32,000 nt of DNA from contig JBILHS010000031.1 in the NCBI GenBank assembly GCA_044350425.1, positions 13,637-45,636 on the forward strand. Direction: 5' to 3'. This DNA is from Saprospiraceae bacterium. GTDB lineage: Bacteria; Bacteroidota; Bacteroidia; Chitinophagales; Saprospiraceae. Shown in pieces: positions 4,197 through 23,950 of this stretch. Both the position numbers and the translations under genes were made by a program. Numbering within the stretch: the first letter of the stretch is position 1; each line of letters begins with the position of its first letter. The notes beneath the pieces are model-generated. The model did not search any database. It was not told where the DNA came from and saw only the letters and a list, made by a program, of their open reading frames with translations.

Positions 4197-4266
4197 GATG
4201 TATGATGTATGATGTATGAACTATGATGTATGATGTATGAACTATGATGTATGATCTATGATGTAT
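4197..4266. repeat. Ten contiguous heptamers GATGTAT (variants GAACTAT, GATCTAT) with 21-bp higher-order periodicity, filling the fcl-manC junction
   Basis: Units counted by hand from 4197 to 4266. On the minus (mRNA) strand it reads ATACATC and ends 6 nt before the manC ATG (4190). Confidence 0.95.
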
Positions 4267-4273
4267 GGGGTGG

Positions 4274-5206
4274 TCAGGGATTCAGTTGAGCTTTTACTTC
4301 CTCGTAAACGGATTTTATGCCGTCTTCCAGATTGATTTTAGCCTTCCAGCCGAGTCCGGTCAATTTACTGACGTCCATTAGTTTACGCGGTGTTCCATCC
4401 GGCTTACTGAGATCATGCTGGATGGTTCCAGTGTAACCTACAATACGCTGAACAAGTTTAGCCAGATCTAAAATAGACAGATCCTGTCCTGTTCCGATGT
4501 TTACGAATCCCGGTTCATTATAATGCTGCATCAGGTAAAAACACGCGTCGGCCAGATCATCTACATGTAGAAATTCGCGGAGCGGCGTGCCGGTACCCCA
4601 CAAGGTAACGAAGGGCGCATGGTTGAGTTTTGCTTCGTGGAATTTGCGCAGCATCGCCGGAAGCACATGACTATTCTCCGGATGGTAATTATCGTTGGGG
4701 CCATAGAGGTTGGTGGGCATCACACTGACAAAATTGCAACCATATTGGGCCCGGTAAGCGTCGCAAAGTTTGATGCCTGCGATTTTTGCGATCGCATAGG
4801 GTTCGTTGGTCGGTTCGAGTAACCCGGTGAGCAAAGCCTCCTCTTTTAAGGGTTGCGGTGCAAGTTTTGGATAGATGCAGGAAGAGCCCAGGAACATCAA
4901 TTTTTCTACCTCGTGTCGGTACGCGGATTCAATGACGTTGGCTTCGATCATTAAATTGTCGTACAAAAATTCAGCTCGGTAGGTATTGTTCGCGAGGATT
5001 CCGCCGACTTTGGCCGCGGCAAGAAAAACATGAACAGGTTTTTCACGACGGAAAAACTCGCTGACCTCCTGCTGATTGCGAAGGTCCAGCTTGCGGGAAT
5101 CAGCCAGAGCAAAATTGGTGAAACCTGCTGCCTGAAGTTTTCGAAGAATGGCAGATCCGACCATTCCACGGTGGCCTGCTATGTATATTTTATCGGTTAC
5201 ATTCAT
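4274..5206 (-). CDS. fcl: GDP-L-fucose synthase (GDP-4-keto-6-deoxy-D-mannose 3,5-epimerase/4-reductase)
   Basis: [19 protein letters not shown] Rossmann motif and collinear SDR-type sequence ending ...[12 protein letters not shown]. 310 aa. Confidence 0.92.
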
Positions 5207-5239
5207 TTATAAGGTACTTCAATCAGAAAGGTTAAAGCA

Positions 5240-6346
5240 TTATTCAAACTCATTCCGGATCTCAAATCCACCTTGTTTTAAATACTCTTCCCTTTGAAAA
5301 AGTTTAAGATCGCTGGCGACCATTTCAGCCACCAATTCCTCCAGCGTGCGTTGGGCTGACCAGCCTAGTTTTTCCTTTGCCTTGCTGGCATCACCTACCA
5401 ATAGATCTACTTCTGCAGGCCTGAAATAGCGTGGGTCGATGGCGATAACTTCCTGCCCGGCTATTAAGTTCGGGTTGCTCGAATGCGCTATAAATCCACG
5501 TTCCTCTACGCCGCTGCCGCGAAATTCCAGGGTCACCCCCAGCTCATCGAAGGCCATCACACAGAATTCACGTACCGCAGTGGTCTTACCGGTCGCGATG
5601 ACAAAGTCTTCAGCTTCCGCTTGTTGCATCATAAGCCACATGGCTTCCACATAATCGCGCGCATGTCCCCAATCGCGTTGTGCGTCCAGGTTGCCCAGAA
5701 AAAGTTTGTCCTGTAAGCCAAGTGAAATTTTTGTGGCTGCCCGGGTGATCTTGCGCGTCACAAAGGTCTCACCCCGTGTGGGGCTTTCATGGTTGAACAA
5801 AATGCCATTGCATGCAAACATGCCATAGCTTTCCCTGTAATTCACCGTGATCCAGTAGGCATAAAGTTTGGCCACACCATAAGGAGAGCGTGGGTAAAAC
5901 GGCGTGCTCTCCCGTTGAGGCGTTTCCTGTACCAAACCGTAAAGCTCTGAGGTGCTGGCCTGATAAAATCGGGTCTTTTCGCTCAATCCCAATAAACGGA
6001 TCGCTTCTAAAAGGCGCAAAGCCCCCACAGCATCTGCATTGGCAGTATACTCCGGGGTTTCAAAACTCACTTGTACGTGACTTTGGGCGCCGAGATTGTA
6101 CACTTCATCCGGTTGTACCTGCTGCATGATCCGGATGATATTGGTCGAGTCGGTCAGATCGCCATAGTGCAGGATAAAACGTTGATTGTCAACATGTGGA
6201 TCCTGATAAAGGTGGTCTACCCGTTCTGTATTGAAGAGCGAGGAACGTCGTTTGACACCGTGGACTTCGTAGCCTTTTTTTAACAAAAGTTCGGCGAGAT
6301 ACGCGCCGTCCTGTCCAGTGATTCCGGTGATGAGGGCTTTTTTCAT
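5240..6346 (-). CDS. gmd: GDP-mannose 4,6-dehydratase
   Basis: [29 protein letters not shown]...[46 protein letters not shown] is the classic Gmd sequence. 368 aa. Confidence 0.95.
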
Positions 6347-6435
6347 AGTTGTATAGCGAACGATTTAGCTCGCTGTGTTGTAGAGACAAAGGTCTGATTT
6401 TGTTTTTAAATGGCGATTGGGTTTTGATCCTTCCG

Positions 6436-7011
6436 CTATATATAATGTAACAAGCCGCATATTCCCTCCTTTAAGGAATATTCCTCGCCGCCTTCCTCGC
6501 AAACAGCGCTTCCCGCCTTAAAGTGCAGACGATTTCCCCGTCGACTCACCCAACCCATTTGTCTGGCAGGCACCCCGGTCATGAGTGCGAAATCCGGCAC
6601 ATCCTTAGTGACTACAGCGCCTGCTCCAATCATGCAATATCGCCCCAAAGTGATCCCACACAACACCGTTGCATTGGCGCCAATACTTGCCCCCTGTTTT
6701 ACGAGGGTGGGGCGAAACTCATTTTTGCGTTCTATGAAACTTCGAGGATTGACCACATTGGTAAATACCATACTGGGCCCTAAAAACACATCATCCTCGC
6801 ACACCACTCCGGTGTACAGCGAGACATTGTTTTGCACTTTTACACCTTTACCCAGGCTTACACCATCTGCCACAAAGACATTTTGACCTAAAATGCAATT
6901 TTCGCCCAAAACAGCGCCAGCGGAGACATGGCAAAAATGCCAGATGCGAGCACCCTCGCCGATCCGGGCGCCGGGGTCAATGATCGCGGAAGGGTGAGCA
7001 AAGTAGGGCAT
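6436..7011 (-). CDS. Left-handed beta-helix (hexapeptide) N-acetyltransferase, WbpD/WlbB-like
   Basis: Hexapeptide repeats run throughout ([37 protein letters not shown]...). The ATG overlaps the upstream TAA (TAATG at 7009-7013). This is one of only two genes here ending in TAG. Confidence 0.8.
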
Positions 7012-7985
7012 TAGCGATACCGTTGACCACGCTGAAGTGGATGTTTACTCAATGGCAGACTAGCCATCGGATGGAAATGCCCTGCTAACCCGGAGGGTTC
7101 CAGGGTCCGAATGGCATGAGCGAGCTCAATGGCAGGCAAAATCGTTTGGATACCGAAGCCATGGCCAGCCAGGATTGCTTCGTAACTCCGGGTGTGAAGA
7201 TCGGTAAAACCTTCGCTGAATTCCACCTCCTGACCATCTACGGTGATAGATCGGTAGGTACGTTTGTCCGGGGCTCTGGCGGCTGCAGGCAAAGTGTCAG
7301 CGTTGATGCTTAAAAACCATCGCACCCGGGCTTTTTCCAACTGGAGGAATCCTGCTGCACGGTCATGGGTATGCAGGTGCACGATATTTTCCTGCACAGG
7401 ACCAAAGATCCAGATCAGCATATCAAAAAAGTGGATGCCTATATTGGTGGCGATGCCGCCGGATTTGGCCAGATCACCTTTCCAGCTGGTGTAGTACCAG
7501 TTGCCCCGGGAGGTGATGTAGCTCAAGTCCACCTCGTGTGGTCCTGCCGACTGATCGATCTTTTCTTTCAGCGCGATCAATGCAGGATGCAAACGCAATT
7601 GAAGAATGGTATTAACTTTTTTCCCTGTTTCAGCTTCATGTTCCAGCAGGGCTTCAGCGTTCCAGGGGTTTAGTACCAGGGGTTTTTCACAAATCACATG
7701 GGCGCCTGATCGCAATCCAAAACGGATGTGTGCGTCATGGAGGTAATTGGGAGAGCAAATGCTCAGATAATCCATGGGCTCACCCCTTCGCTTCAACTTG
7801 TCCAGGTGTCTGTCAAAGCGCTCAAATTCAGTGAAAAAGTCAGCTTCAGGGAAATAACTATCCATCACGCCCACGGAATCCTGAGGGTCAAAGGCTGCAA
7901 TCAGTCTGTGACCGGTGTCACGAATGGCTTTCATATGTCGTGGCGCTATATAGCCTGCTGCGCCGATGAGTGCAAAATTGGACAT
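7011..7985 (-). CDS. Gfo/Idh/MocA-family NAD-dependent oxidoreductase, WbpB-like (UDP-GlcNAcA 3-dehydrogenase-like)
   Basis: [21 protein letters not shown] Rossmann N-terminus. ATG at 7985 was chosen because the longer ORF-track start (8060) would overlap the upstream gene. Confidence 0.8.
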
Positions 7986-8046
7986 GTTGGACCTTTGATT
8001 TTTTTGGCTGACTCGGGTTGTTTTAAGTGCAAGCGCTAGCCCAAAC

Positions 8047-9192
8047 TTATCGGGCTTCAAAAAACGCTTTTACCGCCCCGGTGATGGTTGATAAAATTTC
8101 ATCCGTCATTTCAGAGTGCATCGGCAAGGAAAATACGGAAGCACAAAGGGATTCTGTAACAGGCAATTTCCCGCCTTTCCAAAAAGGAGCAAATGCGGGT
8201 TGATCATATAGGGGAACAGGGTAATAGATCATGCAGGGGATTCCTTTTTCCAATAAAAAAGCTTTCAAGGCGTCACGGGTTTCTACCGCATCCGGTGTGG
8301 TGATCTGTAGGGTATATTGGTGGAAGACGTGGGTTGAATTTGGTTCGCGGGCAGGGACCTTCAACTGTGGAATCTGTCCAAAAATACGGTCATAATAACC
8401 TGCGGCGCGATTCCGGGCGGCATTATATGTATCCAGATGTTTCAGTTTGGCATTGAGGACCACTGCCTGCATTGCATCCAGGCGGGAGTTTACCCCGATC
8501 TCATCATGGTAATACATTTTAGACTGCCCGTGGTTGGCGATCATCCTGGCTTTGGCGGCCAGGGCATCGTCGTTGGTCATCATGGCGCCACCGTCTCCGT
8601 AACAGCCCAGATTTTTGGATGGGAAAAAGGAGGTGCAGCCAAAATGTCCGATGGTTCCGGTCTTTTGAGTCCCGGCATCAGAGACACCAGGAGCGGTATA
8701 ATCTGCCCCAATGGCTTGTGCGTTGTCTTCTATCACAAATAAATCATGCTTTTTTGCCAAAGCCATGATGGGCGTCATATCGGCGGATTGTCCGAACAAA
8801 TGAACCGGGACAATGGCTTTGGTCCGAGGCGTGATCACGGCCTCCATATGCGCGGCTGTGATATTCATCGTGTCGGGGTCTACATCTGTCATAACAGGGG
8901 TGAGCCCCAGTAATCCGATCACTTCGGCGGTGGCCACGTAGGTAAACGCGGGTACAATAACCTCGTCTCCTGGTTTGAGTCCAAGCGCCATCATAGCGAT
9001 TTGAAGTGCATCTGTCCCGTTTGCGCAAGGAATCACGTGTTTTACGCCGAGATATTGTTCCAAACCTTCCCGAAAAGCGTTCACTTTGGGTCCTCCGATG
9101 AAAATACAGGAATCTAAGACCTCCTGCATTTCATGGTCTATCTCACTTTTGATGTGACCATATTGGGTTTTGAGGTCAACCATTTGTATCAT
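8047..9192 (-). CDS. DegT/DnrJ/EryC1/StrS-family PLP aminotransferase, WbpE-like
   Basis: MIQMVDLKTQY...; the PLP-lysine region is SFFPSKNLGCYGDGGA. First ATG at 9192 (alternatives are TTG 9201 and ATG 9183). TAA stop. Confidence 0.85.
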   Translation of the reverse strand: MIQMVDLKTQYGHIKSEIDHEMQEVLDSCIFIGGPKVNAFREGLEQYLGVKHVIPCANGTDALQIAMMALGLKPGDEVIVPAFTYVATAEVIGLLGLTPVMTDVDPDTMNITAAHMEAVITPRTKAIVPVHLFGQSADMTPIMALAKKHDLFVIEDNAQAIGADYTAPGVSDAGTQKTGTIGHFGCTSFFPSKNLGCYGDGGAMMTNDDALAAKARMIANHGQSKMYYHDEIGVNSRLDAMQAVVLNAKLKHLDTYNAARNRAAGYYDRIFGQIPQLKVPAREPNSTHVFHQYTLQITTPDAVETRDALKAFLLEKGIPCMIYYPVPLYDQPAFAPFWKGGKLPVTESLCASVFSLPMHSEMTDEILSTITGAVKAFFEAR

Positions 9193-9205
9193 AAAAATCA
9201 ATTTA

Positions 9206-9426
9206 AAATGTGGTCAATGTGTTAAATGTGGTCAATGTGTTAAATGTGGTCAATAAGTTAAATGTGGTCAATGTGTTTAATGTGGTCAATGTGATCAATG
9301 GATAAAAGCGGCCAATTTTACCTGGTCGAGCCCAAAACACATTGACCGCATTGACCACATTGACCACATTTAACTTATTGACCACATTTAACTTATTGAC
9401 CACATTTAACTTATTGACCACATTAA
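9206..9426. repeat. 221-bp inverted pair of tandem arrays filling the junction between the dehydrogenase and aminotransferase genes
   Basis: The left arm (9206-9301) is about five copies of the 18-mer AAATGTGGTCAATGTGTT. A spacer occupies 9302-9337. The right arm (9338-9426) consists of 9-mers CATTGACCA / CATTTAACT, the reverse complement of the left unit. Read directly. Confidence 0.95.
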
Positions 9427-10716: not shown

Positions 10717-10772
10717 ACAAGGGCGTTCCTGATATTCGGCCGCAAAGTTACTCGATAGTGGATTGGTTTCAC

Positions 10773-11237
10773 TCACACATCCTGATGTCGGCCTAAATAA
10801 ACCACCCCGATGGTTCCATCCAGGGCTTCCCAAAATTCGGAGGTACCCAGCATTCGGCTCATGGGCACTTCCGAACCTTGAATATTGGAAGCTGACCACC
10901 AGGCTACCCCATGAATGTTGTCGTCTTCCATGATATTGTCCAGATGAATATTATCCGGGTGCTCATCCAGAGCCAGCTGACACTCAATAATGAGCGTTAC
11001 TGCAAACAGATCCGGCGCAAGGTATTCACTGATGAAACGAAGGTCACGCGCCTCCACCCTTAAACCAGTCTCCTCCCAGACCTCCCGCTCCACGCCACGA
11101 AAAATATCAGCGTCGGTAGGCTCCAGACGCCCACCCGGGATACTCCAACGTCGGACCCCATGACGGTTTTGCTGTTGGATGAGTAAGATCTCATCGCCCC
11201 TTCGGACCAGGCCTGCTACGCGGATTCTATGCACCAT
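10773..11237 (-). CDS. NUDIX hydrolase
   Basis: Nudix box GGRLEPTDADIFRGVEREVWEETGL. 154 aa, ATG at 11237. Confidence 0.85.
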   Translation of the reverse strand: MVHRIRVAGLVRRGDEILLIQQQNRHGVRRWSIPGGRLEPTDADIFRGVEREVWEETGLRVEARDLRFISEYLAPDLFAVTLIIECQLALDEHPDNIHLDNIMEDDNIHGVAWWSASNIQGSEVPMSRMLGTSEFWEALDGTIGVVYLGRHQDV

Positions 11238-11243
11238 GTTCTA

Positions 11244-11285
11244 GATGTATGAGGTATGATGTATGATGTATGATGTATGATGTGT
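11244..11285. repeat. Six heptamers GATGTAT (variants GAGGTAT, GATGTGT)
   Basis: Counted by hand. On the minus strand it reads ATACATC and ends 6 nt upstream of the NUDIX ATG. Confidence 0.95.
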
Positions 11286-11436
11286 TTTTGGGGTAGTTGG
11301 GGGCAAATTTGGGTAGCCTGTTTTTTGATCTGTATCAAACAACTATTTTTTTTCCAAAAAGATTCTCATCGGACTACTTTTGAGGCTCCTTGTGTGACCC
11401 AAGTCAGGCTTACAGTCCTAAAGCCAAGCCAGATTC

Positions 11437-11500
11437 CAACATCATACATCATACATCATACATCATACATCATAGTTCATACATCATACATCCCTACATC
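11437..11500. repeat. About nine heptamers ATACATC (variants CAACATC, ATAGTTC), the inverted partner of 11244-11285
   Basis: Counted by hand. It abuts the GTG start at 11501 with no gap. Confidence 0.95.
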
Positions 11501-13063
11501 GTGTCAAAAAAAGATTCTTTCGTCGCGGCCATTCAAGCTGGCTATACCTTTTCAGGGGCTAATATCGTGTTGGGTGGCGCAATGTTGGATGCTGAAGCAA
11601 TCCCAGGCCTCCAGATTAAAGTTCCGCTGCGCACCATGAACCGTCACGGCCTGATTGCCGGGGCTACAGGAACAGGAAAAACTAAAAGCCTGCAGGTGAT
11701 TGCGGAGCAACTTGCGGCCAACGGAGTGCCTTCACTGTTGATGGATATCAAAGGAGACCTGAGTGGTATCGCTATGCCAGGTACGGATAATCCGAAAATT
11801 ACGGAACGTGCCGGAAAAATCGGTATCACCTGGCATGGCACAGGTAATTCTGTAGAGTTTCTGAGTCTTTCAGGTGAAAAGGGCGTTCGGTTGCGCGCCA
11901 CGATCAGCGAATTTGGCCCGGTATTGTTTTCCCGTATTCTGGGGCTGAATGATACACAGGGTGGGGTAGTATCGGTCGTTTTTAAATATTGTGACGACCG
12001 GAGTCTTCCGCTCCTCGACCTGAAGGATTTTAAAAAAGTACTGCAGTTTCTAGGCAACGAAGGAAAGGCTGAGATGGAAGCAGAATTTGGACAGTTCTCC
12101 AGCGCTACAGCCGGCACGATTCTCCGTAAAGTGGTAGAACTAGAACAGCAAGGTGCGGAGACCTTTTTTGGTGAAGTTTCTTTTGATGTACATGATCTGG
12201 CACGAATGGATGAAAATGGCCGGGGTGTCATTAGTGTCGTTAGATTAACAGATATACAGGATCGCCCTAAGCTATTCAGTACTTTCATCCTGCAAATGCT
12301 GGCGGAGATTTATGCTTCCTTTCAGGAAAAGGGTGATGTGGAACAGCCAGAACTTTGCATTTTTATTGATGAGGCGCACCTGGTGTTTCAGGAAGCCAGT
12401 CCTGCTTTGATGCAGCAGATGGAGGCGATCATCAAACTGGTGCGCTCCAAAGGGGTAGGTATTTTCTTTATCACCCAAAACCCGATCGATATCCCGGAAA
12501 GCATCCTGGCGCAATTGGGTTTGAAGTTACAACACTCCCTCCGTGCTTTTACTGCCAAAGACCGAAAGGCGATCAAACTCGCTGCCGAAAACTATCCGAT
12601 TACAGATTATTACGACACTGAGGACCTGCTCACCAACCTGGGTATCGGTGAAGCCATCATTAGCGTACTCAATGAGAAAGGCATTCCCACGCCTCTGGCG
12701 CACACGCTCATGCGCCCACCCGAAAGCCGGATGGACATTCTCACCCCTACAGAAATTGACGGCATCATCAGCCGCTCTGCTCTGGTCCGAAAATACAATC
12801 AGGAGATAGATCGGGAGAGTGCCTATGAAATCCTGATGAGCAAAATAGCAGAAGTACAAGAGATACAAGCATCTCAACAACAGCAGGTTACGAGGGCAAA
12901 ACAGGAAAAAGAAGAGCCGGGTATGATAGAGACCATCGCCAAAGATCCGCTTGCCCGTCAGATCGGGCGAACAGTGGCTCGGGAACTCACCCGTGGTCTG
13001 CTGGGCGTCTTCGGATTGGGGGGCTCCAGTCGCTCCACCCGGAAGAAAACGGGCTGGTTTTAA
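11501..13063 (+). CDS. DUF853-family P-loop NTPase (HerA/YjgR-like ATPase)
   Basis: VSKKDSFVAAIQAGYTFSG... N-terminus typical of the family, and Walker A GLIAGATGTGKTKSLQ. GTG 11501 is the first start after the repeat-derived HTSYII pseudo-translation. TAA stop. Confidence 0.85.
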   Translation: MSKKDSFVAAIQAGYTFSGANIVLGGAMLDAEAIPGLQIKVPLRTMNRHGLIAGATGTGKTKSLQVIAEQLAANGVPSLLMDIKGDLSGIAMPGTDNPKITERAGKIGITWHGTGNSVEFLSLSGEKGVRLRATISEFGPVLFSRILGLNDTQGGVVSVVFKYCDDRSLPLLDLKDFKKVLQFLGNEGKAEMEAEFGQFSSATAGTILRKVVELEQQGAETFFGEVSFDVHDLARMDENGRGVISVVRLTDIQDRPKLFSTFILQMLAEIYASFQEKGDVEQPELCIFIDEAHLVFQEASPALMQQMEAIIKLVRSKGVGIFFITQNPIDIPESILAQLGLKLQHSLRAFTAKDRKAIKLAAENYPITDYYDTEDLLTNLGIGEAIISVLNEKGIPTPLAHTLMRPPESRMDILTPTEIDGIISRSALVRKYNQEIDRESAYEILMSKIAEVQEIQASQQQQVTRAKQEKEEPGMIETIAKDPLARQIGRTVARELTRGLLGVFGLGGSSRSTRKKTGWF

Positions 13064-13141
13064 TATAAAGCCAAAATAAACGGGAGTCATCCCGAATTTT
13101 GGGTTATGCCCGTCCCTCTGGGACGAGGGTAAACCAGTGCT

Positions 13142-14879: not shown

Positions 14880-14957
14880 GATGAGATGGTGGTTAAAATT
14901 AGATTATTTATGAGTGGTCTGTAAAAACACTTATGGTCCTGGAATACATTCGAGTAT

Positions 14958-15001: not shown

Positions 15002-15019
15002 GAATGGACACATTTTCAA

Positions 15020-17845: not shown

Positions 17846-17875
17846 TTACTGCGTAACGATAAATGCATGTTGACT

Positions 17876-17924
17876 ATAGCGCCCTTTTGATCAGCTGATC
17901 AAAAGGGCGCTATTTTATTTTTTT
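17876..17924. terminator. Perfect 38-bp palindrome plus T-tract, terminating the S8 peptidase gene and possibly the convergent lipoprotein gene
   Basis: atagcgcccttttgatcag|ctgatcaaaagggcgctat (17876-17913); all 19 pairs were checked by hand. It is followed by tttatttttttat on the + strand and touches the minus-strand stop codon at 17915-17917. Confidence 0.75.
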
Positions 17925-18409
17925 ATCAACTCATTCAAAGGCGACTGTCGTTTCATTTTGATCGTTCGTTCGAAATTGGGTTTTTTCTGAACGGAGGTCC
18001 ACTCATCTTTACTGTTTTGGGTCCATTGAATGTTGTTCCAACCATCCCGAATGGGGTCAAGCTGAAAGGATTTTTTATCCAGCAAGACAGCCACCCATTC
18101 GCCATTGGGTCCCAGATAGAGATGGTTGTTCCTCCAATATACCCTGGAAAGATTGGTGCCAAAAGTGTCCTTTCCGTCAAATTGGTAAGAAACCACTTCC
18201 AGCGTGCTGTCTGTTGGGAAATGATAAGTCTGATAATAACCCGGGCCGGACACCTCACTTTTCCAGTTGCCCTCGATCCATCGGAGTTTTTGAAGATCTG
18301 ATTTTTTATAGATGGGTGGGTTTTGGGCATTGCCAGGCAATACAGGGGTTTCTTTGCAGGCAATGAGCATGCAAATGGAAAGCCCCAGGATCCAGAATTT
18401 TGTTGTCAC
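17915..18409 (-). CDS. Hypothetical lipoprotein
   Basis: From GTG 18409 the N-terminus reads MTTKFWILGLSICMLIAC with a lipobox LIAC. The TTG at 18439 is an alternative start. No recognisable domain. Confidence 0.55.
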   Translation of the reverse strand: MTTKFWILGLSICMLIACKETPVLPGNAQNPPIYKKSDLQKLRWIEGNWKSEVSGPGYYQTYHFPTDSTLEVVSYQFDGKDTFGTNLSRVYWRNNHLYLGPNGEWVAVLLDKKSFQLDPIRDGWNNIQWTQNSKDEWTSVQKKPNFERTIKMKRQSPLNELIKK

Positions 18410-18503
18410 AGGTGTAAAAGTTGAAGGATGAAAGTGCAAAGTTCTTAAAAGTCCGATTGCATTCTTTTAATTTGGCTACCAGATTTTTGAATGGTCAGCC
18501 AGA

Positions 18504-19412
18504 CTAAAAGAGTACGCCTTGTTGACCGGGCACTGGCTTGGGGCCCCGAAGCGAAACTTCAGGAATTGCCTGGCTAAAGGTTTCGACGCAAAATGCGGTC
18601 AGCTCAGGCGAGAGCATATTGTCGGGTTCATGGGTAAAAAAATACGCCTCCTGCAAACCATTTTCAAACCAGTACTTCAACCTTTCGGCCCAATCCCTTA
18701 CTCGGCCATAATCACTGGGATGCAATCCATTTCCAACAAACCGAATGAGGGTTTTGGCATGGGTCAGATGCATGTGGCAAACATCCCTTCGACCGGCTAC
18801 ATCCGTAATCACCCCGGCCACACCATGCTTTTTTAATAATTCAAAAAAAGCTTCAGCGGCGTCTGTTTTCTGGAAAAAACCAGGGCTCCGCGCTTCAACT
18901 GAAAGCGGAATCTGCGGGGCGTAGATGGCCAGAAATCGTTCCAAAACGCTCAGATCCCGAAGTCCAAAATGAGGCGGAAGTTGAAGGAAACAACAGCCCA
19001 GTTTTTCCGAAAACTCCAATACTGTATCACAAAAGATCAAAAGATCATCGCCTGAAAGTCCCAGATCTTTAGCGTGACTGATGCTTTGAGGTACTTTAGG
19101 GCAAAAGCGAAAATCTTTGGGGACCGCTTCAAACCATCGGCGCACCATACTGGAGTCCGGTATCCGATAATGGGTTGTGTTGAACTCTATGGTATTGAAC
19201 TGCACGCCATAGTGCCGTAAAAAATCGGGCTCTTTGCTTCCTGCAGGGTACCATTTGCCTACCCAGGGTTTCATGTTATATCCGGTAGGCCCAATGTAGA
19301 GGGATTGCTGCGAAGGCTTTGAAAGCGATGCGAGCAGGTCTGTATTTTGTCTCGGTTCAGGGGGCAACTTAAAGTCAACCTGATCTACAGAAGAGAGCTT
19401 GCCAAAATCCAT
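18504..19412 (-). CDS. DUF72 (UPF0759) family protein
   Basis: LYIGPTGYNMKPWVGKWYPAG...FLRHYGVQFNTIEFNTTHYRIP is the DUF72 signature. It ends in TAG. Confidence 0.8.
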   Translation of the reverse strand: MDFGKLSSVDQVDFKLPPEPRQNTDLLASLSKPSQQSLYIGPTGYNMKPWVGKWYPAGSKEPDFLRHYGVQFNTIEFNTTHYRIPDSSMVRRWFEAVPKDFRFCPKVPQSISHAKDLGLSGDDLLIFCDTVLEFSEKLGCCFLQLPPHFGLRDLSVLERFLAIYAPQIPLSVEARSPGFFQKTDAAEAFFELLKKHGVAGVITDVAGRRDVCHMHLTHAKTLIRFVGNGLHPSDYGRVRDWAERLKYWFENGLQEAYFFTHEPDNMLSPELTAFCVETFSQAIPEVSLRGPKPVPGQQGVLF

Positions 19413-19419
19413 GTTGCGG

Positions 19420-21054
19420 TTATAGCTTTTTGTAAAAGTATATTTCTACGCGTCGGTTTAACTGGCGGTTTTCGCGGGTATCATTGGGTACCATGGGCTT
19501 TTGAGAACCATAACCTACAAAATTGAGACGCTTGGTATCTATGCCTTTGGATACCAGATAGTCAAGACATTTTTTAGCACGTTTTTCGGCCAGGAGGTCA
19601 TTGGCAGGTTCTTTGCCCGTATTGTCGGTATGTCCTTCGATCCGTGCAAACAAAACGGGATCCTAATTCAGAATAACAAGCACCTCATTCAGGGTAGTCA
19701 CGGAAGTACGGTGCCAATCCTGTAAGGTCGAACCAAAATAGACCGCTTTGTAAGGGACACCTACTGCTGCAGGCATTGCCTCTGGACAGCCTTTCAGTTC
19801 GGAGGTCCCGGGAAGGGTAGGGCACGCATCTGCTTTGTCTGCGATTCCGTCTCCATCAGTGTCCGGACATCCACGCAAAAGTTCAGGGCCCGCAATACCC
19901 GGACAATAGTCTGTGTTATCAGGAATTCCGTCGCCATCAGAATCCGGGCAGCCTTTCCATTGAAGTTTGCCGCTCATATCCGGACAAAGATCTTCAGCAT
20001 CTGCCACACCATCCTTGTCGCGGTCAATTGCCGGACAGCCTCTGTACGCAGCCACACCTTTCACTTCTGGGCAGTTGTCATCCTTGTCTGCGATTCCGTC
20101 AGCGTCCATGTCAGGACAGCCATTTAGTGCGTAAAGTCCGGTTGCTTCCGGGCACAGGTCGTCTTTGTCAGCTACGCCATCATGATCCTGATCAGGGCAG
20201 CCAAAGAGGCTCCGGATGCCGGGTTTGTCAGGGCATTCGTCTCTTTCATCGGGTATGCCATCTTCGTCCTGATCGGGATCGCTGGGTTTTTCATCCCCCT
20301 GGTTGACCGGGTGTTTATGCTGCGACTTTTTTCTGCCTGGTCCGAGCGTATAAGATGCACTGACCGGCGTGGAAACAAACCAGTCATTTTGATTGGGGTT
20401 GCCAGACACACTTATTCCATCCAGAAAATCGCCTACGGCTGGCCGCGCACAGGATTCTATCAATATCCCGATCCGCTTACTGAGGTTGAAACGGATTCCA
20501 ACGCCCACTGGAATGCTAAAATCAAGTTTTTGTGTGTGGTCTTTATCAAATTTGGCAAGCACGGGATCCAGGTATTCATTGGTATTTGCACCATTCCAAA
20601 ATACATTAGGGTTGGTAAAAGTGCCCCCGAGCCCGAAGGCCAGGAATGGATCTATCCGAGGTTTATTATGACGAGGCCCCCCGGAATTTTGTCGGTAATT
20701 TTTACCCGACCTCCGTGGATAAAACGCTGCCATACAAGATAGTTCAAGCAGAGGCGAAGAGAACGATATCCCACGGGTCTTATGCCATGCCGGTTCAATG
20801 AAATGGTCATCATTCCCGGAAAGCCTGGAGTAGAGCAGGTTTACACGGGCAGTAAAGGGTTTGCGCATGTTTTTGCGAAAATGAACGGAGAACGCCGGGT
20901 TGACACCCAAAACAGGCGCCTTTAATTGAACTTTATTGGTTTCGCCATTATACGCTGCTATGCCCATGCCGGCACCCATTTCCCAGGAAGTGGATGCCTG
21001 GGCGAATAGGCCAAAAGGCATCGTCAGCCACAGGCCTAGGATCATGTTTCTCAT
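19420..21054 (-). pseudogene. OmpA-family outer-membrane protein (N-terminal beta-barrel-like domain, six thrombospondin type-3 repeats, OmpA_C) interrupted by a single in-frame TAG at 19663-19665
   Basis: The ORFs 19663-21054 and 19420-19653 are in the same frame. Hand reading across the junction gives ...TTLNEVLVILN*DPVLFARIEGHTDNTG...NRRVEIYFYKKL, one continuous OmpA_C domain. There is no frameshift. Confidence 0.7.
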
Positions 21055-21189
21055 AGTAGGAGCAATGTTTTGAGTAAGCGTGGGTTTCCTTGTTTGGCAG
21101 AACTACCTAAAATAGGGCGACAAAATAGTAGGATTTAGCTAAAGCATGCTCAATCAAATAGGAAAACCACTTTCAGTCAGCAGGTTTCG

Positions 21190-21246
21190 CCACTTTCTCC
21201 CACAGTGAAAAGCAGTAGAAGCAGTGGTCTCCACTTCCTCCCACAG
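21190..21246. promoter_or_regulatory. Two copies of a 16-bp direct repeat CCACTTYCTCCCACAG, 41 bp apart, in the ompA-like/mraZ divergent region
   Basis: ccactttctcccacag at 21190-21205 and ccacttcctcccacag at 21231-21246, read directly. Function unknown. Confidence 0.35.
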
Positions 21247-21531
21247 ATTTACACTATATTTTGAAATCTGAAATTTTTAAGTGTTTTTTGGTCTGGTTTT
21301 AAGTTAAAAAATTATTTTATTGAATCTTTATGTTTGTTATATTGTGCGAAGCAGTGTAAAAAATTATTTCTTATTATATTTTTTATTTGAGCTTTAAGAT
21401 TTTAAAATATTGATTTTCAGTGTTTTAAAAATTAAATTAAAATTATTTTATAAAAAAATGAACATAATGTGTTAGTTTGTGGGAAAATATGGAGGTTGCA
21501 CTTACTTTTGTCCTTGTGAATTGGTGACCGA

Positions 21532-21576
21532 TCCCACATTTGTCCCGACTCATACTTAGCAGATTTACAGTCCCAC
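21532..21576. promoter_or_regulatory. Candidate MraZ operator: TCCCAC / GTCCCG / TCCCAC boxes just upstream of mraZ
   Basis: tcccac at 21532-21537, gtcccg at 21542-21547 and tcccac at 21571-21576. The complement GTGGGA contains the TGGGA-type pentamer reported for MraZ binding in E. coli. Assignment is by analogy only. Confidence 0.3.
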
Positions 21577-21582
21577 ACTACA

Positions 21583-22062
21583 ATGCAACTCATCGGTGAA
21601 TATCCGGTGTCCCTTGACGACAAGGGCCGCTTGCGCTTACCAACCGCGCTGCTCCGCCAATTACCTGCTTTAACCGCAGGATCCAATGGCGACGGAGCTG
21701 CTTATGAATTTGTAGTAAACCGGGGGTTTGAGAAGTGTCTCACACTTTACCCCAAACCGGTCTGGGACGGCATCGCTGCCAAGTTGAGCCGTCTCAATAG
21801 TTTCAATGACCGGAACCGCGCCTTTGTACGCTCTTTTCACTACGGAGCGTATCCACTGACCACCGACAGCGCGGACAGAATCCTTTTGCAGAAGCCTTTG
21901 ATGGATTATGCGGGTATCACCAAGGATGCAGTACTGCTTGCTATGAACGGCAAGGTTGAAATCTGGTCGCCAGAGCAATATGCTTCCACCGCCGCCTTTG
22001 ATCCGAATGAATTTGCTGATTTGGCAAATGACGTGATGGGCGGGGAGAACGATGATGTATAA
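21583..22062 (+). CDS. mraZ: Transcriptional regulator MraZ
   Basis: MQLIGEYPVSLDDKGRLRLPTALLRQL with a second half-domain ...TTDSADRILLQKPL. 159 aa. The TAA at 22060-22062 lies inside the first heptamer array. Confidence 0.93.
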   Translation: MQLIGEYPVSLDDKGRLRLPTALLRQLPALTAGSNGDGAAYEFVVNRGFEKCLTLYPKPVWDGIAAKLSRLNSFNDRNRAFVRSFHYGAYPLTTDSADRILLQKPLMDYAGITKDAVLLAMNGKVEIWSPEQYASTAAFDPNEFADLANDVMGGENDDV

Positions 22063-22095
22063 GGTATGAAGTATGATGTATGAAGTATGATGTAT
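22054..22095. repeat. Six heptamers GATGTAT (variants AAGGTAT, GAAGTAT) overlapping the mraZ stop codon
   Basis: Counted by hand. Confidence 0.95.
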
Positions 22096-22143
22096 GAAAG
22101 GCTTAAGCTGAATGCGAGAGTGCATTTTCAAGCTTAGTTTTTC

Positions 22144-22199
22144 ACACATCATACTTCATACATCATACATCATACATCATACATCATATATCATACATA
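22144..22199. repeat. Eight heptamers ATACATC (variants ACACATC, ATACTTC, ATATATC, ATACATA), the inverted partner of 22054-22095
   Basis: Counted by hand. It ends 2 nt before the rsmH ATG at 22202. Confidence 0.95.
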
Positions 22200-22201
22200 A
22201 T

Positions 22202-23146
22202 ATGGTGTACCACGAGTCTGTCCTATTACACGAAAGCATTGATCTACTAGGCATTACGCCTGGTGGGGTTTATGTAGATGCGACGTTTGGCGGCGGCGGT
22301 CACTCCAAATTGATACTCGAAAAAATGGGCGAAAAAGGTCGCCTGTTTGCCTTCGATCAGGATGAGGATGCTAAGCGAAACACGGAACAGCAGGCGTTTT
22401 CAAGCCATTCTGGCTTTGTTTTCATTCCATCGAATTTCAGGCATTTGAAACGGCAATTACGTGCAGAAGGCGTAAGACCAGGCACTGTAAATGGAATCCT
22501 TGCAGATCTGGGTGTAAGCAGCCACCAGCTGGATACAGCAGAAAGGGGATTCTCTTATCGATTCGAAGCAGCACTCGATATGCGGATGAGTCGCCTGGAT
22601 GGGGAAACAGCTGCGGACATACTCAATACACGAAGTGCAGAAGAACTGCAGCGCATTTTTAGCGAACTTGGGGAGTTGAGAAACTCTAAAACGCTGGCAC
22701 ATGCAGTGATACAGGAGCGGGAACGAAAGCGTTTTCGAACCACAGGCGACCTGCTGGAATTGGCTACCAAGAATCTGATGGGAGAACGTATGCGCTACCT
22801 CTCACAGGTTTTTCAGGCCTTGCGCATGGAAGCTAATGATGAACTCGGGGCGCTGGAAGATTTTATGAAGGATGCTTTGGAAATGCTGGCGCCGGGTGGA
22901 AAACTGGCAGTGATCACCTTTCATTCGCTGGAAGATCGAATGGTGAAGAATTATATGAAAGCGGGCAATGTAGCGGGAGAGCCGGACCAGGATTTTTATG
23001 GCAATATCACAAAGCCCTGGAAACTGGTAACCAAAAAGCCTGTAGAAGCAAGCCAGGCAGAAACCAAGCAAAATGCCCGCTCCAGAAGTGCAAAGCTTCG
23101 GGTCGCCGCAAAAAATGTAACTAACGAACAATTTAAAACGAAATAA
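22202..23146 (+). CDS. rsmH: 16S rRNA (cytosine1402-N4)-methyltransferase
   Basis: MVYHESVLLHESIDLL...YVDATFGGGGHSK...ITFHSLEDRMVKN. ATG 22202 was chosen because the upstream part of the ORF-track entry is a translation of the repeat. Confidence 0.93.
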   Translation: MVYHESVLLHESIDLLGITPGGVYVDATFGGGGHSKLILEKMGEKGRLFAFDQDEDAKRNTEQQAFSSHSGFVFIPSNFRHLKRQLRAEGVRPGTVNGILADLGVSSHQLDTAERGFSYRFEAALDMRMSRLDGETAADILNTRSAEELQRIFSELGELRNSKTLAHAVIQERERKRFRTTGDLLELATKNLMGERMRYLSQVFQALRMEANDELGALEDFMKDALEMLAPGGKLAVITFHSLEDRMVKNYMKAGNVAGEPDQDFYGNITKPWKLVTKKPVEASQAETKQNARSRSAKLRVAAKNVTNEQFKTK

Positions 23147-23176
23147 GAACTACGGGTTTAAAAAGCTCAAATACGC

Positions 23177-23485
23177 ATGGCTAATAAGTTGCTTAATGCC
23201 CTTAACGTAAGTCGCCACACCACAGATCTGGTGTTTGGTAATTTTCAATTTCTGCTCTTTATAGGCGGATTGGGTATTCTGTACATCGCCAATGCACATT
23301 ACTCTGAAAAAGGGGTGCGGCGTATTCAGTCGTTGCAGAAGGAAATAAAAGAGTTGAAATGGGAATATACCTCGATCAAAAGTGAAACGATGTATAAGAG
23401 TATGCAGAGTCAGATTGATGAGAGTCTGGAGCCTGTAGGGCTTGATTTGGAGAACAAAGGTCCTAAAGTGATAAGTGTTAAGTGA
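23177..23485 (+). CDS. ftsL: Bacteroidota-type cell-division protein FtsL
   Basis: 102 aa, with a single TM helix (FQFLLFIGGLGILYIANAHY) followed by a coiled coil (IQSLQKEIKELKWEY). It occupies the conserved position between rsmH and ftsI. The TGA lies inside the repeat array. Confidence 0.8.
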   Translation: MANKLLNALNVSRHTTDLVFGNFQFLLFIGGLGILYIANAHYSEKGVRRIQSLQKEIKELKWEYTSIKSETMYKSMQSQIDESLEPVGLDLENKGPKVISVK

Positions 23486-23498
23486 TAAGTGTTAAGTG
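23464..23498. repeat. Five heptamers of the type (A/T)TAAGTG, with a 14-bp higher-order unit ATAAGTGTTAAGTG, overlapping the ftsL stop
   Basis: Read directly: aaagtg ataagtg ttaagtg ataagtg ttaagtg. Confidence 0.9.
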
Positions 23499-23524
23499 GT
23501 GCACATGAATCAAGCTGCAAATGC

Positions 23525-23926
23525 ATGGAAAATCAACGACCTAATAAAGTGGTACTAAGAGAAAAGAGTTTTTTACGGGCCATTAGAATTGTCAGGCTCC
23601 GTAAGCATTTGCGCGAACAAAAAAAGGAGTATGAAATATCGAGGTAGTTGTTCAAGAGTGGTACAAATCCAGGCACAATGGTTAAGGAGTCAGAGTATGC
23701 GCAGTCGGGAGCTGATTTTATAAATAAGCTAAAAGTCGCCCAAAAGGAATTGAATGAAACCAGATATTGGATTGAACTGCTTTTTGCTACTGACTACCTC
23801 TCAGAATCTGAAAAAGTGTCCATTCTAAATGATGTGGATGAAGTAATGAGATTAACGACCAGTTCAATTAAAACTCGAAAAGCCAATCTCGAATCAAGTA
23901 AAAAGCACAGCTCTAAAACCACTTAA
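23525..23926 (+). pseudogene. Four-helix-bundle protein gene (23S rRNA intervening-sequence protein / Avd family, PF05635-like) with an in-frame TAG at 23645-23647
   Basis: Hand translation from ATG 23525 gives MENQRPNKVVLREKSFLRAIRIVRLRKHLREQKKEYEISR*LFKSGTNPGTMVKESEYAQSGADFINKLKVAQKELNETRYWIELL... It is collinear with the family pattern ...EKSF.F...I..L...L...KEY.LSKQLLRSGTSIGAN..EA...QS..DF..KL.IA.KE..ET.YWL.LL. The stop falls where the family has Gln (CAG to TAG). Confidence 0.75.
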
Positions 23927-23947
23927 TACTAACCACTTAACACTAAC
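23920..23947. repeat. Four heptamers CACTTAA / TACTAAC / CACTTAA / CACTAAC, the imperfect inverted partner of 23464-23498
   Basis: Read directly. It contains the TAA stop of the four-helix-bundle ORF and ends 3 nt before the ftsI GTG (23951). Confidence 0.9.
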
Positions 23948-23950
23948 AAA

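Follow-up and report, generated by a model that had tools for sequence, protein, structure and literature searches.

Polarized tandem-repeat arrays at gene junctions of a Saprospiraceae bacterium and their association with PF05635 genes

Tandem arrays and their partner arms in the window

The window, a stretch of 32,000 nt from a Saprospiraceae bacterium (contig JBILHS010000031.1), was searched for arrays with TRF, and gene identities were taken from Pfam. Six of its genes are directly preceded by tandem arrays with little or no G in the sense of the gene; an initial annotation had placed all six correctly, as judged from the TRF calls and the sequence. Five are arms of four inverted pairs and the manC array is single. 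The arrays, their partners and the gene inside one pair are:

4197..4267, minus strand: manC array (TRF), unpaired; (GATGTAT)x10 on the plus strand, that is, (ATACATC)x10 in manC sense
9206..9293, minus strand: array of the DegT/WbpE-like gene, forming the 3′ arm; 18-mer array, G-poor in mRNA sense
9341..9424, minus strand: 5′ arm of the WbpA-WbpE hairpin; 18-mer array, G-containing in mRNA sense
11244..11283, minus strand: NUDIX arm; (ATACATC)n in NUDIX sense, 5.7 copies, separated by 6 nt from the ATG (11237)
11439..11500, plus strand: HerA_C/DUF853 arm; (ACATCAT)n in gene sense, about 9 units, 0 nt to the GTG (11501)
22052..22098, plus strand: mraZ-rsmH 5′ arm; ATGAAGT/ATGATGT units, C-less, with the mraZ stop (22060-22062) inside
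22142..22202, plus strand: mraZ-rsmH 3′ arm; (TCATACA)n, G-less, its end being the rsmH ATG (22202)
23466..23498, plus strand: ftsL-ftsI 5′ arm; AAGTGAT/AAGTGTT, C-less, with the ftsL stop (23483-23485) inside
23525..23926, plus strand: PF05635/TIGR02436 four-helix-bundle gene (‘23S rRNA intervening-sequence protein’), from Pfam, NCBIfam and the translation
23917..23947, plus strand: ftsL-ftsI 3′ arm; CACTTAA/CACTAAC, G-less, 3 nt before the ftsI GTG (23951)

The manC array fills the 83-nt gap between the stop of the upstream epimerase gene (4274) and the manC ATG (4190), lying 6 nt from each; it is a unit shorter in one strain, and two contigs are broken within it. At the WbpA-WbpE junction, arm 9341-9424 starts 2 nt past the stop of the UDP-glucose/GDP-mannose dehydrogenase gene (9427) and is 92% complementary to 9207-9293, and arm 9206-9293 ends 13 nt ahead of the ATG (9192) of the DegT-family aminotransferase (WbpE-like). 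The NUDIX arm forms the left side of the inverted pair around a 155-nt divergent spacer and is 95-97% complementary to 11439-11485; the HerA_C/DUF853 product, read from the GTG at 11501, has the N-terminus VSKKDSFVAAIQAGY. Transcripts of this divergent pair probably start within the spacer, so that no hairpin is expected there. At mraZ-rsmH, ftsL-ftsI and WbpA-WbpE the coordinates place the complementary arms at or after the upstream stops, as had been claimed.

The PF05635 gene enclosed by the ftsL-ftsI pair was missed by the initial annotation. In this genome an in-frame amber codon (23645-23647) makes it a pseudogene, and its own stop codon falls inside the 3′ arm. The allele between ftsL and ftsI is intact (130 aa) in strain L118 and 5′-deleted, with half of it lost, in L116; in L146 the gene sits in the mraZ>rsmH hairpin. 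The enclosed gene is thus undergoing decay between strains.

The proposed pairing of the arms agrees with the folds, which predict long and very stable hairpins at mraZ-rsmH (-81.7 kcal/mol, z -12.8) and for the WbpA-WbpE 18-mers (-130 kcal/mol, z -17); the ftsL-ftsI arms show long-range pairing in the minimum-energy fold. The comparison of copy number among strains, suggested earlier, shows array lengths differing in 7-nt steps. The mraZ-rsmH variants of 154, 168 and 210 nt each fold with z of about -13, and the arms co-vary, strain-specific variant units appearing mirrored in both.

Polarity and distribution beyond the window

On either strand, an inverted pair reads from 5′ to 3′ as a G-containing, C-less arm followed by a G-less arm. 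Because a palindrome has the same reading on both strands, the orientation of a pair relative to a gene is automatic and uninformative, and the underlying rule is a built-in polarity of pairs rather than an orientation toward a gene. With each pair counted once, the window alone offers four pairs and the single manC array as independent elements, five in all, which gives p of about 0.03 under a 50:50 null.

A search with (ATACATC)x3 yielded 114 loci, nearly all from Bacteroidota, and a census of them gave 371 arrays, 216 of period 7 and 167 of these G-less or C-less; its gene calls come from a crude in-house caller and its related genomes are non-independent samples. The orientation rule put forward in the initial annotation is real in this census: complementary pairs have the polarity of the window in 31 cases and the reverse in 3 (p = 8e-7), and arrays touching starts are G-poor in sense by 28 to 8 (p = 0.001). 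Arrays touching stops are G-containing in sense by 70 to 15 (p = 1e-9), and the unpaired ones among them by 40 to 14. Unpaired G-rich-in-sense arrays concentrate from -17 to +17 nt around the upstream stop, and unpaired G-poor-in-sense arrays in many cases finish 0-12 nt short of the downstream start. None of the three reversed pairs abuts a start codon. One reversed Bacteroidota hairpin lies where a gene ends, with a T-run behind it.

Start codons are depleted in the sense strand of arrays that abut a 5′ end, at 2.9 per 100 nt against 13.5 in antisense for all such arrays and 2.6 against 8.2 for those with both G and C. Since the latter also show the deficit, the avoidance targets start codons and not merely G. 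AUG is rarer than expected in Bacteroidetes translation-initiation regions generally (PMC6847099).

Relatives picked only by RsmH homology (74-89% RsmH identity) carry hairpins at the mraZ>rsmH, rsmH>ftsL and ftsL>ftsI junctions, with differing unit sequences. The G-richer arm comes first at all 15 junctions with two arrays, three of which have weak or no G/C asymmetry. At these junctions the 5′ arm overlaps the upstream stop (-1 to -36 nt), and the 3′ arm stops 1-11 nt short of the start at 13 and overlaps it by 2-5 nt at two. The ftsL>ftsI hairpin of relative L133 is reversed, close to a start. At the orthologous junctions of more distant relatives the arrays are absent.

Inverted arrays of short tandem repeats flank every one of the 27 PF05635 genes examined, which come from six phyla; an automated tally assigns 17 of these cassettes the polarity of the window, 2 (both Nostoc) the reverse and 8 a mixed one. 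The layout is the same in all five Saprospiraceae/Lewinellaceae homologues, Xanthomonas homologues lie between accB and accC inside GGGAATC…CATTCCC arrays, and the 14 plasmid-borne homologues, from five phyla, are without exception flanked by such arrays. In Treponema and Monoglobus, the 40 kb around the PF05635 gene contain no sizeable heptamer arrays other than those touching it.

Origin of the arrays and maintenance of their polarity

The elements are probably palindromic inserts with polarity kept by selection, arms that form an RNA duplex, and gene-less forms derived from PF05635 cassettes. They occupy junctions of neighbouring genes, mostly co-transcribed ones, with exact placement from stop to start. 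A complete insert comprises a 5′ tandem-heptamer arm with G and no C, a loop, and a complementary G-less 3′ arm, the loop being short or holding a promoterless PF05635 four-helix-bundle gene. As the design is the same on both strands, the G-less arm comes to lie by the downstream start and the G-containing arm by the upstream stop.

Selection on translation signals may maintain this polarity. A G-less arm is unable to create false starts because ATG, GTG and TTG all contain G, and avoiding them would be most important in Bacteroidota, as their ribosomes pay no regard to Shine-Dalgarno sequences; in a C-less arm the unit length of 7, which 3 does not divide, brings stop codons into every frame. 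In a read-through transcript the arms are predicted to form a duplex of 40-90 bp, which would place the stop of the upstream gene next to the start of the downstream one, at the foot of the stem, and so make an insert tolerable between coupled cistrons. RNase III may take this duplex as a substrate, as with the homologous intervening sequences (IVS) of 23S rRNA; the RNase III site envisaged in the initial annotation stands as plausible by precedent (Coxiella IVS, PMC4990558; hmw1A, PMC12721329), and for this organism as a putative site only. Gene-less hairpins may be decayed or non-autonomous kin of PF05635 cassettes; against this derivation, those in the window have unit sequences other than the cassette's. 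Start-codon avoidance covers the start side only and leaves the G-containing unpaired arrays at stops unexplained. Another factor must also act, because Xanthomonas GGGAATC, devoid of start and stop codons whichever strand is read, obeys the same rule (PMC4692102).

It is unlikely that the G-less arrays are instead positive translation elements that serve as unstructured standby or enhancer sites where ribosomes do without Shine-Dalgarno pairing, with the upstream arm as an occluding switch. The arrays do end 0-13 nt from the six starts and 1-11 nt from those of relatives, a short A-rich spacer always comes after them, G-less RNA self-pairs by A-U only, the last 6-17 nt before the AUG are unpaired in minimum-energy folds, the 3′ arm is the longer in 19 pairs against 10 (not significant), and initiation in Bacteroidetes relies on weak structure and upstream adenines (PMC6847099). 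However, arrays abutting stops outnumber those abutting starts by 85 to 36 in the census, so that they are not primarily leaders, and unpaired arrays between co-directional genes show no general preference for being G-poor in sense (30 G-poor, 48 G-rich). The polarity also holds in users of Shine-Dalgarno sequences (Xanthomonas, Monoglobus), so that a standby function specific to Bacteroidota is not required. The lack of arrays at orthologous junctions of more distant relatives, and the behaviour of the elements as inserts with a decaying gene, likewise speak against enhancers.

Rho-dependent termination, which we think quite unlikely to set the polarity, would act on a C-rich, G-poor first arm that, if unpaired, would load Rho on the untranslated intergenic RNA and cause polar effects; a G-containing arm emerging first would capture the C-rich arm into a duplex once it is made. 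This would account for the stop-side bias of unpaired arrays and for the polarity of Xanthomonas GGGAATC. It would also fit the two clear reversals in Nostoc, cyanobacteria being without Rho (PMC12642595), and the reversed Bacteroidota hairpin at a gene end with its T-run. The proposal is purely inferential, however, operons do contain unpaired, G-less 70-nt arrays in sense (manC), and start-codon avoidance in arrays with both G and C is not predicted by it.

Contingency loci, in which slipped-strand changes of copy number would switch or tune downstream genes as in the phase variation of pathogens, are very unlikely. Strains with identical flanking proteins do differ by 7-nt indels, and the expression of H. 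influenzae hmw1A has been shown to depend on heptamer copy number and on RNase III (PMC12721329). Yet the genes involved are housekeeping ones (the mraZ-rsmH-ftsL-ftsI division cluster; accB-accC in Xanthomonas), the arrays lie outside ORFs, the co-variation of the arms indicates conserved pairing and not switching, and Rehm et al. concluded likewise for the Xanthomonas and Nostoc repeats (PMC4692102).

Least credible of all is a role at the DNA level, with the arrays as PF05635 binding sites or substrates, or as sites of recombination or cruciform formation by which the cassette moves, and the RNA features as by-products: the strict and specific link seen in six phyla between PF05635 and inverted arrays, the different junctions occupied in related lineages and the resemblance of PF05635 to Avd, an accessory protein that binds nucleic acid and reverse transcriptase (PMC10053308), would suit it, but the arms persist while the gene decays, here and in Coxiella (PMC4990558). 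The gene-less hairpins of the window also differ in units from the cassette, and the window proteins scanned included no reverse transcriptase, transposase or integrase. To our knowledge the PF05635 family has no catalytic activity, which counts further against such a role.

Comparison with known systems

Like the inserts proposed here, REPIN/REP, Correia and ERIC elements are short intergenic palindromes that fold within mRNA; RNase III acts on some of them, and they are present as many non-autonomous copies per genome. Their arms are unique sequences, unlike the tandem short repeats of the window, and they are moved by known transposases (RAYT for REPIN), none of which was seen among the window proteins scanned. 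The STRR heptamers of heterocyst-forming cyanobacteria, to which the arrays had been likened, are tandem and intergenic, with unit sequences unlike those of the window; we know of no classical STRR unit that is G-less. STRRs are defined by sequence and taxon and not by a paired architecture as here. The cyanobacterial link nevertheless goes beyond analogy: Nostocales have PF05635 genes in inverted heptamer arrays, and the genes of Nostoc, Anabaena and Planktothrix lie in arrays of the same kind as in the window.

The (ATCTTTC)n hairpin in the 5′-UTR of H. influenzae hmw1A is cut by RNase III, and copy number tunes expression (Rapun-Araiz et al. 2025, PMC12721329). As here, G-less heptamers of variable copy number stand in sense upstream of a gene and form a long hairpin with a G-rich arm; there, however, the G-less array is the 5′ arm, its partner is not a repeat array, and the hairpin belongs to one virulence locus, for which phase variation has been demonstrated (PMC12721329).

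MacGregor (2015) described TAACTGA heptamer direct repeats in some Bacteroidetes and cyanobacteria (PMC4679880). Like our arrays, these keep one ‘forward’ orientation, end a few nt before start codons, often overlap the upstream stop, have no Shine-Dalgarno sequence between array and start, and differ by 7-nt indels between strains (PMC4679880). They depart from ours in being almost all direct (one inverted among about 170), in a unit with one G and stop codons in forward orientation, and in that no enclosed gene was reported (PMC4679880).

The 23S rRNA IVS of Coxiella burnetii and Leptospira share with the window cassette a PF05635 (S23p) ORF, in reductive evolution, in the loop of a terminal-inverted-repeat stem long enough for RNase III, and 5′ tandem heptamers whose copy number depends on the strain (PMC4990558). 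These IVS lie in helix 45 (or 25) of 23S rRNA and the window cassette between the ftsL and ftsI cistrons, where, unlike theirs, its arms overlap a stop codon and end at a start codon; RNase III cleavage was demonstrated in vitro for the Coxiella IVS and would apply to the cassette by homology (PMC4990558).

The positional rule itself had already been reported by Rehm et al. (2015) for the heptamers GGGAATC (Xanthomonas) and GGGGAYT (Nostoc), whose G-rich strand lies, as here, in sense within 50 bp past a stop or in antisense within 50 bp upstream of an ORF (PMC4692102). These repeats, too, are mostly found between co-directional ORFs with no tie to phase-variable genes, and Xanthomonas has 70-75 inverted ‘convergent’ pairs per genome (PMC4692102). 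They were read as G-quadruplex formers (PMC4692102), whereas GATGTAT and AAGTGAT of the window cannot form quadruplexes. A link to PF05635 was not reported by Rehm et al. (PMC4692102); here, Xanthomonas PF05635 genes are flanked by exactly those repeats.

Arrays and inverted pairs in the window

Tandem Repeats Finder located nine substantial arrays in the window, all of them intergenic or overlapping gene ends only, as judged from the ORF list and Pfam. Six adjoin a start codon, and each of these has little or no G when read in the direction of the adjoining gene; their positions and G-poor sense are as the initial annotation had claimed.

Start-adjacent arrays (coordinates, adjoining gene, distance to its start codon)
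4197-4267, manC, 6 nt to the ATG at 4190
9206-9293, DegT-family gene, 13 nt to the ATG at 9192
11244-11283, NUDIX gene, 6 nt to the ATG at 11237
11439-11500, HerA_C/DUF853 gene, directly adjoining the GTG at 11501
22142-22202, rsmH, array end at the ATG at 22202
23917-23947, ftsI, 3 nt to the GTG at 23951

The complementary G-containing arms lie at or just after upstream stop codons, also as claimed: the partners of the rsmH and ftsI arrays overlap the stop codons of mraZ and ftsL, respectively, and the third begins 2 nt past the dehydrogenase stop. In all, eight of the nine arrays are halves of four inverted pairs.

Inverted pairs (coordinates of the two arms, description)
9206-9293 / 9341-9424, 92% complementarity, arms 44 nt apart
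11244-11283 / 11439-11500, 95-97% complementarity, arms 155 nt apart
22052-22098 / 22142-22202, mraZ-rsmH junction
23466-23498 / 23917-23947, ftsL-ftsI junction, arms about 420 nt apart

We term a pair type A when it runs 5'-[G-containing, C-less]…[G-less]-3', and type B when this polarity is reversed. A type A pair reads identically on both strands, so that adjoining gene starts meet its G-less arm and gene ends its G-containing arm. Since the pairs are palindromic, the six orientations relative to the gene do not count as separate observations; the independent elements in the window number five, namely four type A pairs and one oriented single array (p about 0.03). The consistent orientation claimed for six cases is thus real, and general, but those cases are not independent, and the arrays are not primarily ‘leaders’: the rule is the fixed polarity of a palindromic stop-to-start insert. 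The question shifts to why type A occurs and type B does not.

Rfam identified zero known RNA families in the whole window. The 18-mer unit (CATTGACCACATTTAAC-type) of the dehydrogenase-DegT hairpin (9206-9424) recurs, 83-86% identical, at 834-907 of L041, a locus in a Saprospiraceae genome bin; this was the sole nucleotide-level match between window repeats and the census loci described below, among the matches listed. Separately, two perfect palindromes of 95 nt (26682-26776) and 89 nt (30200-30288) lie inside the open MurE ORF and the next-but-one mur ORF, sharing a 29-nt core, TGATAGTCTCACTT-C-AAGTGAGACTATCA. Eight contigs from independent metagenomes encode an identical MurE, whose alignment to PDB 4bub has an in-frame insertion of about 23 aa exactly at the palindrome, resembling the in-frame palindromic elements of Rickettsia.

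Polarity in strains, relatives and other genomes

Folding was evaluated at three junctions. The mraZ-rsmH RNA is predicted to fold at -81.7 kcal/mol (shuffles -35.4; z -12.8) and the dehydrogenase-DegT RNA at -130 (shuffles -55.6; z -17), while the ftsL-ftsI arms pair across 420 nt in the predicted minimum-energy fold. On contigs from independent freshwater metagenomes that encode identical MraZ, the mraZ-rsmH spacer measures 154, 168 or 210 nt, in steps that are multiples of 7, and all three variants fold at z of about -13. Variant units peculiar to a strain turn up in both of its arms, in mirrored form: ATGAAGT / ACTTCAT in the window, ATGAACT / AGTTCAT in two other fetched contigs (L116 and L118), and ATGATGG / CCATCAT in L118. 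The manC array has one unit fewer in one strain, and two contigs stop inside it. The comparison of copy number among strains that the initial annotation suggested therefore does reveal differences, both in the 7-nt steps at mraZ-rsmH and in the single manC unit. Assembly artefact and planted sequence are both rejected, as the same junctions and arrays appear in many independent metagenome assemblies.

Relatives were picked by RsmH homology alone. Their junction geometry was taken from array coordinates; RNAfold stem edges were dropped because coding flanks gave spurious outer pairs. Close relatives (74-89% RsmH identity) have hairpins at mraZ>rsmH, rsmH>ftsL and ftsL>ftsI, built from units unlike those of the window (AGTGATA/CACTTAA, TATGAGT/ACTCATA, GATGAAC/GTTCATA and others). 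The G-richer arm comes first in 15 of 15 non-redundant two-array junctions, with G/C asymmetry weak or absent in three of them. Counted from the last base of the stop codon, the 5' arm sets in at -1 to -36 nt, and the 3' arm ends 1-11 nt before the start in 13 junctions, usually past a short A-rich spacer, and overlaps the start by 2-5 nt in the remaining two. In distant relatives (47-56% RsmH identity) the junctions are mostly short and plain. The pairs behave as conserved hairpins with sequence turnover. In one relative (L143, 3416-4368), rsmH and ftsL are separated by an additional ORF-containing segment of 950 nt, after which comes a plain inverted repeat, not heptamers.

A census outside the window used an exact search for (ATACATC)x3 with one genome per species and returned at least 114 loci. 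Among the matches listed, the source species is absent and almost all loci are from Bacteroidota (Saprospiraceae, Chitinophagaceae, Ferruginibacter, Spirosoma, Paludibacteraceae, Prevotellaceae). Genes were called with our own codon-usage caller, which replaced an ORF-length ranking that mis-called mraZ and NUDIX. The matches listed contain 371 arrays of at least 28 nt, of which 216 have period 7, and 167 of these 216 are G-less or C-less. Among the same matches, complementary pairs comprise 31 of type A and three of type B (p = 8e-7), arrays located between -20 and +15 nt of a gene start have their G-poor strand in sense in 28 cases and their G-rich strand in 8 (p = 0.001), those at gene ends have the G-rich strand in sense in 70 and the G-poor strand in 15 (p = 1e-9), and the 3' arm of pairs shows no significant excess in length over the 5' arm (p = 0.16); these p-values are indicative only, given that we used a gene caller of our own and sampled related genomes.

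Unpaired arrays between co-directional genes have no overall sense preference (30 G-poor, 48 G-rich, among the matches listed). Those that are G-rich in sense concentrate at -17 to +17 nt of the upstream stop, and those that are G-poor in sense frequently end 0-12 nt from the downstream start, again among the matches listed. A strand census with a statistical test, which the initial annotation had proposed, thus bears out G-poor sense at starts (28 versus 8) but not among unpaired arrays as a whole (30 versus 48), for the matches listed. None of the three type B pairs listed adjoins a start codon, and one (5824-5930 of census locus L010), located at a gene end, has a T-run after it. This hairpin and another at L214 (2442-2480) sit at transcription-unit ends with a T-run next, and look like intrinsic terminators with heptamer arms.

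ATG, GTG and TTG each contain G, so a G-less strand is devoid of start codons; (GATGTAT)n carries ATG, plus TGA in all three frames.

Start codons per 100 nt of array, among the matches listed
All arrays adjoining a 5' end (n = 69): sense 2.9, antisense 13.5
Arrays with G and C both at least 5% (n = 24): sense 2.6, antisense 8.2

Arrays entirely free of start codons number 48 of 69 in sense and 14 of 69 in antisense, among the matches listed. Because the sense deficit is found also in arrays with both bases, the thing avoided is start codons, not merely G. Ribosomes of Flavobacterium johnsoniae work without Shine-Dalgarno pairing, and real starts there have a deficit of AUG over positions -21 to -1 (PMC6847099). 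For the start side of the polarity, and for that side only, avoidance of start codons has the best support as a reason; the stop-side bias of unpaired arrays is unexplained by it. Nor can it explain the same rule in Xanthomonas, whose GGGAATC unit contains no start or stop codon on either strand. A second factor may be that Rho loading onto a C-rich first arm is avoided. The positive standby or enhancer role proposed in the initial annotation is not needed for the rule.

PF05635 genes between inverted arrays

The ftsL-ftsI pair encloses a gene, overlooked by the initial annotation, of the PF05635 / TIGR02436 family (‘23S rRNA intervening-sequence protein’, a four-helix-bundle protein). The window copy matches Pfam in its C-terminal part (E = 1.5e-12) and has an in-frame amber codon at 23645-23647. 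The L116 allele has lost its 5' half, and the L118 allele is intact at 130 aa, matching TIGR02436 at 5.6e-23 and PDB 2RLD at 2.8e-30. In a relative (L146) the gene is placed in the mraZ>rsmH hairpin, not at ftsL>ftsI. The layout of stop, C-less heptamers, gene, G-less heptamers and start holds for five of five Saprospiraceae/Lewinellaceae homologues. Our HMM search of the census loci found only two more PF05635 genes, with the same layout, in Bacteroidales loci (L037 and L019), and most census hairpins are gene-less, both among the matches listed. A Pfam scan of 20 window proteins found no transposase, integrase or reverse transcriptase, about ten ORFs lying outside that scan.

Beyond Bacteroidota, the gene for the Xanthomonas homologue, whose structure is PDB 2GSC, occupies the accB-accC junction in the operon for acetyl-CoA carboxylase, which is essential (1124-1572 and 1184-1632 of fetched loci L219 and L221), with GGGAATC-type repeats after the accB stop and CATTCCC-type repeats reaching the accC ATG. 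These GGGAATC repeats are the ones investigated previously as G-quadruplex formers. A tblastn survey of plasmids with the B. thetaiotaomicron homologue found copies in Nostoc, Anabaena, Planktothrix, Dolichospermum, Pseudanabaena, Gloeocapsa, Euhalothece, Leptolyngbya, Bernardetia, Chondrinema, Treponema, Monoglobus and Chlorohelix. Inverted short tandem arrays flank both sides in 14 of 14 plasmid contexts fetched, several with one complete hairpin per side. An automatic tally of 27 cassettes, each a PF05635 gene between such arrays, gave 17 type A, two type B (both Nostoc) and eight mixed, five of the latter being type A by eye. Within 40 kb around the Treponema and Monoglobus genes, every heptamer array exceeding 3.5 copies touches the gene. 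Repeats accompany PF05635 genes in every case examined, in six phyla.

Most copies are co-directional with both neighbours, as expected of promoterless operon inserts; this is seen, for instance, at accB-accC, at hsdS-hsdR, in an RND adaptor-permease pair, and where a HEPN-domain gene comes after a DUF1156-domain gene. Many cassettes are within defence-type operons (L229, Monoglobus; L225, Anabaena; L233, Pseudanabaena; L230/L234, Chlorohelix and Gloeocapsa; L213). Positions there include hsdS/hsdR, cas2/cas1 or beside cas1, DUF1156-domain / Swt1-family HEPN-domain genes, and DUF3780- / DUF1156-domain genes.

Significance and comparison with known systems

Among the long simple repeats of bacteria, heptamers are, to our knowledge, the most common kind; their bias in position and strand has been remarked on repeatedly, and we know of no explanation offered. 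We trace this bias to a palindromic element of fixed G-first polarity that fills the stop-to-start gap exactly. It has a testable candidate selective reason, a downstream arm without start codons beside the real start, which is especially relevant to Bacteroidota, where Shine-Dalgarno sequences are ignored. The arrays could serve as strain markers. They also affect genome data: short-read contigs often end in them (L129, L130, L120, L121 and several census loci), so that assemblies are broken and metagenome bins will contain too few of the arrays. They shift predicted start sites, with ORFs running through G-less arms: these lack TGA and TAG, and often any stop, so mechanical ORF lists overextend rsmH (22112-22201) and the DUF853 gene (11390-11500) upstream. 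Automatic annotation of some contigs has an equally over-long call (344 aa versus 314 aa).

The link between PF05635 and heptamers across six phyla, and an IVS-like (intervening sequence) cassette in operon-junction form, appear to be new; a literature search for four-helix-bundle/IVS proteins linked to operon-junction heptamers found only the Coxiella rRNA case (PMC4990558). We tentatively raise a broader idea, which we consider rather unlikely as it stands: PF05635 genes and inverted heptamers may be one widespread, unrecognised selfish cassette that inserts in rRNA helix tips and operon stop-to-start junctions (ftsL-ftsI, mraZ-rsmH, accB-accC, hsdS-hsdR, DUF1156-domain/HEPN-domain genes) and hides by folding out of the transcript. 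The gene-less hairpins and arrays, abundant in Saprospiraceae, Xanthomonas and cyanobacteria, would descend from it as non-autonomous or decayed forms, and the protein would act on the repeats, e.g. by binding heptamer RNA or DNA. If true, three old puzzles would share a single origin: the IVSs in rRNA, the heptamer repeats of bacteria, and a large protein family whose function is unknown.

Several known systems resemble the window arrays. The G-rich heptamers of Xanthomonas and of Nostoc follow the same positional rule, with 70-75 convergent inverted pairs per Xanthomonas genome, and were read as quadruplex formers (Rehm et al. 2015, PMC4692102). The window arrays and the census share the stop/start strand rule (70 versus 15 and 28 versus 8, among the matches listed) and the convergent pairs (four of five window elements; 31 versus 3 in the census, among the matches listed), but G-tracts are absent: GATGTAT, AAGTGAT and the 18-mer have no G-runs. 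As these units are unable to form quadruplexes, quadruplexes are not required for the rule. TAACTGA repeats of Beggiatoaceae, cyanobacteria and five Bacteroidetes occur in a single orientation just upstream of starts, often across stops (MacGregor 2015, PMC4679880). At H. influenzae hmw1A, the transcript contains an (ATCTTTC)n array that base-pairs with a G-rich arm; the resulting hairpin is cut by RNase III, and expression is tuned by copy number (PMC12721329). PF05635 also resembles Avd, the accessory protein of diversity-generating retroelements (PMC10053308).

A phase-variable contingency locus carries its repeat in an ORF or promoter of a surface or virulence gene, with length changes that switch expression. 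In the arrays studied here length varies between strains; however, they occupy stop-to-start gaps next to housekeeping genes. The window arrays do not belong to the STRR repeats of heterocystous cyanobacteria, the analogue first proposed: the host is Bacteroidota (T9SS sorting domains, FtsL_2; closest PF05635 homologues in Saprospiraceae/Lewinellaceae), and the STRR heptamer units differ from those of the window.

The 23S rRNA IVS of Coxiella has a decaying ORF for S23p (PF05635), a 28-bp terminal-inverted-repeat stem, tandem GACAGAT repeats in strain-variable number and demonstrated RNase III cleavage (PMC4990558). The window cassette likewise has a PF05635/TIGR02436 four-helix-bundle ORF, a terminal inverted-repeat stem around it (23466-23498 and 23917-23947 pair in the predicted fold; ORF-enclosing inverted repeats are also found in its relatives and homologues), and flanking heptamer arms (AAGTGAT/AAGTGTT and CACTTAA/CACTAAC) whose lengths vary among L136, L137, L118 and the window. 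The observation relevant to RNase III here is the predicted duplex length and stability; by homology and geometry, the insert would form a hairpin and be processed by RNase III with coupling preserved. IVSs of this type sit in helix 25 or 45 of the 23S rRNA gene, whereas the cassette lies between ftsL and ftsI in a window without rRNA. Every testable IVS feature is thus shared save location, in mRNA rather than rRNA; we file the cassette as IVS-like in its working, not as an IVS member. The classical rRNA IVS then looks like a special case of a general cassette able to inhabit essential operons.
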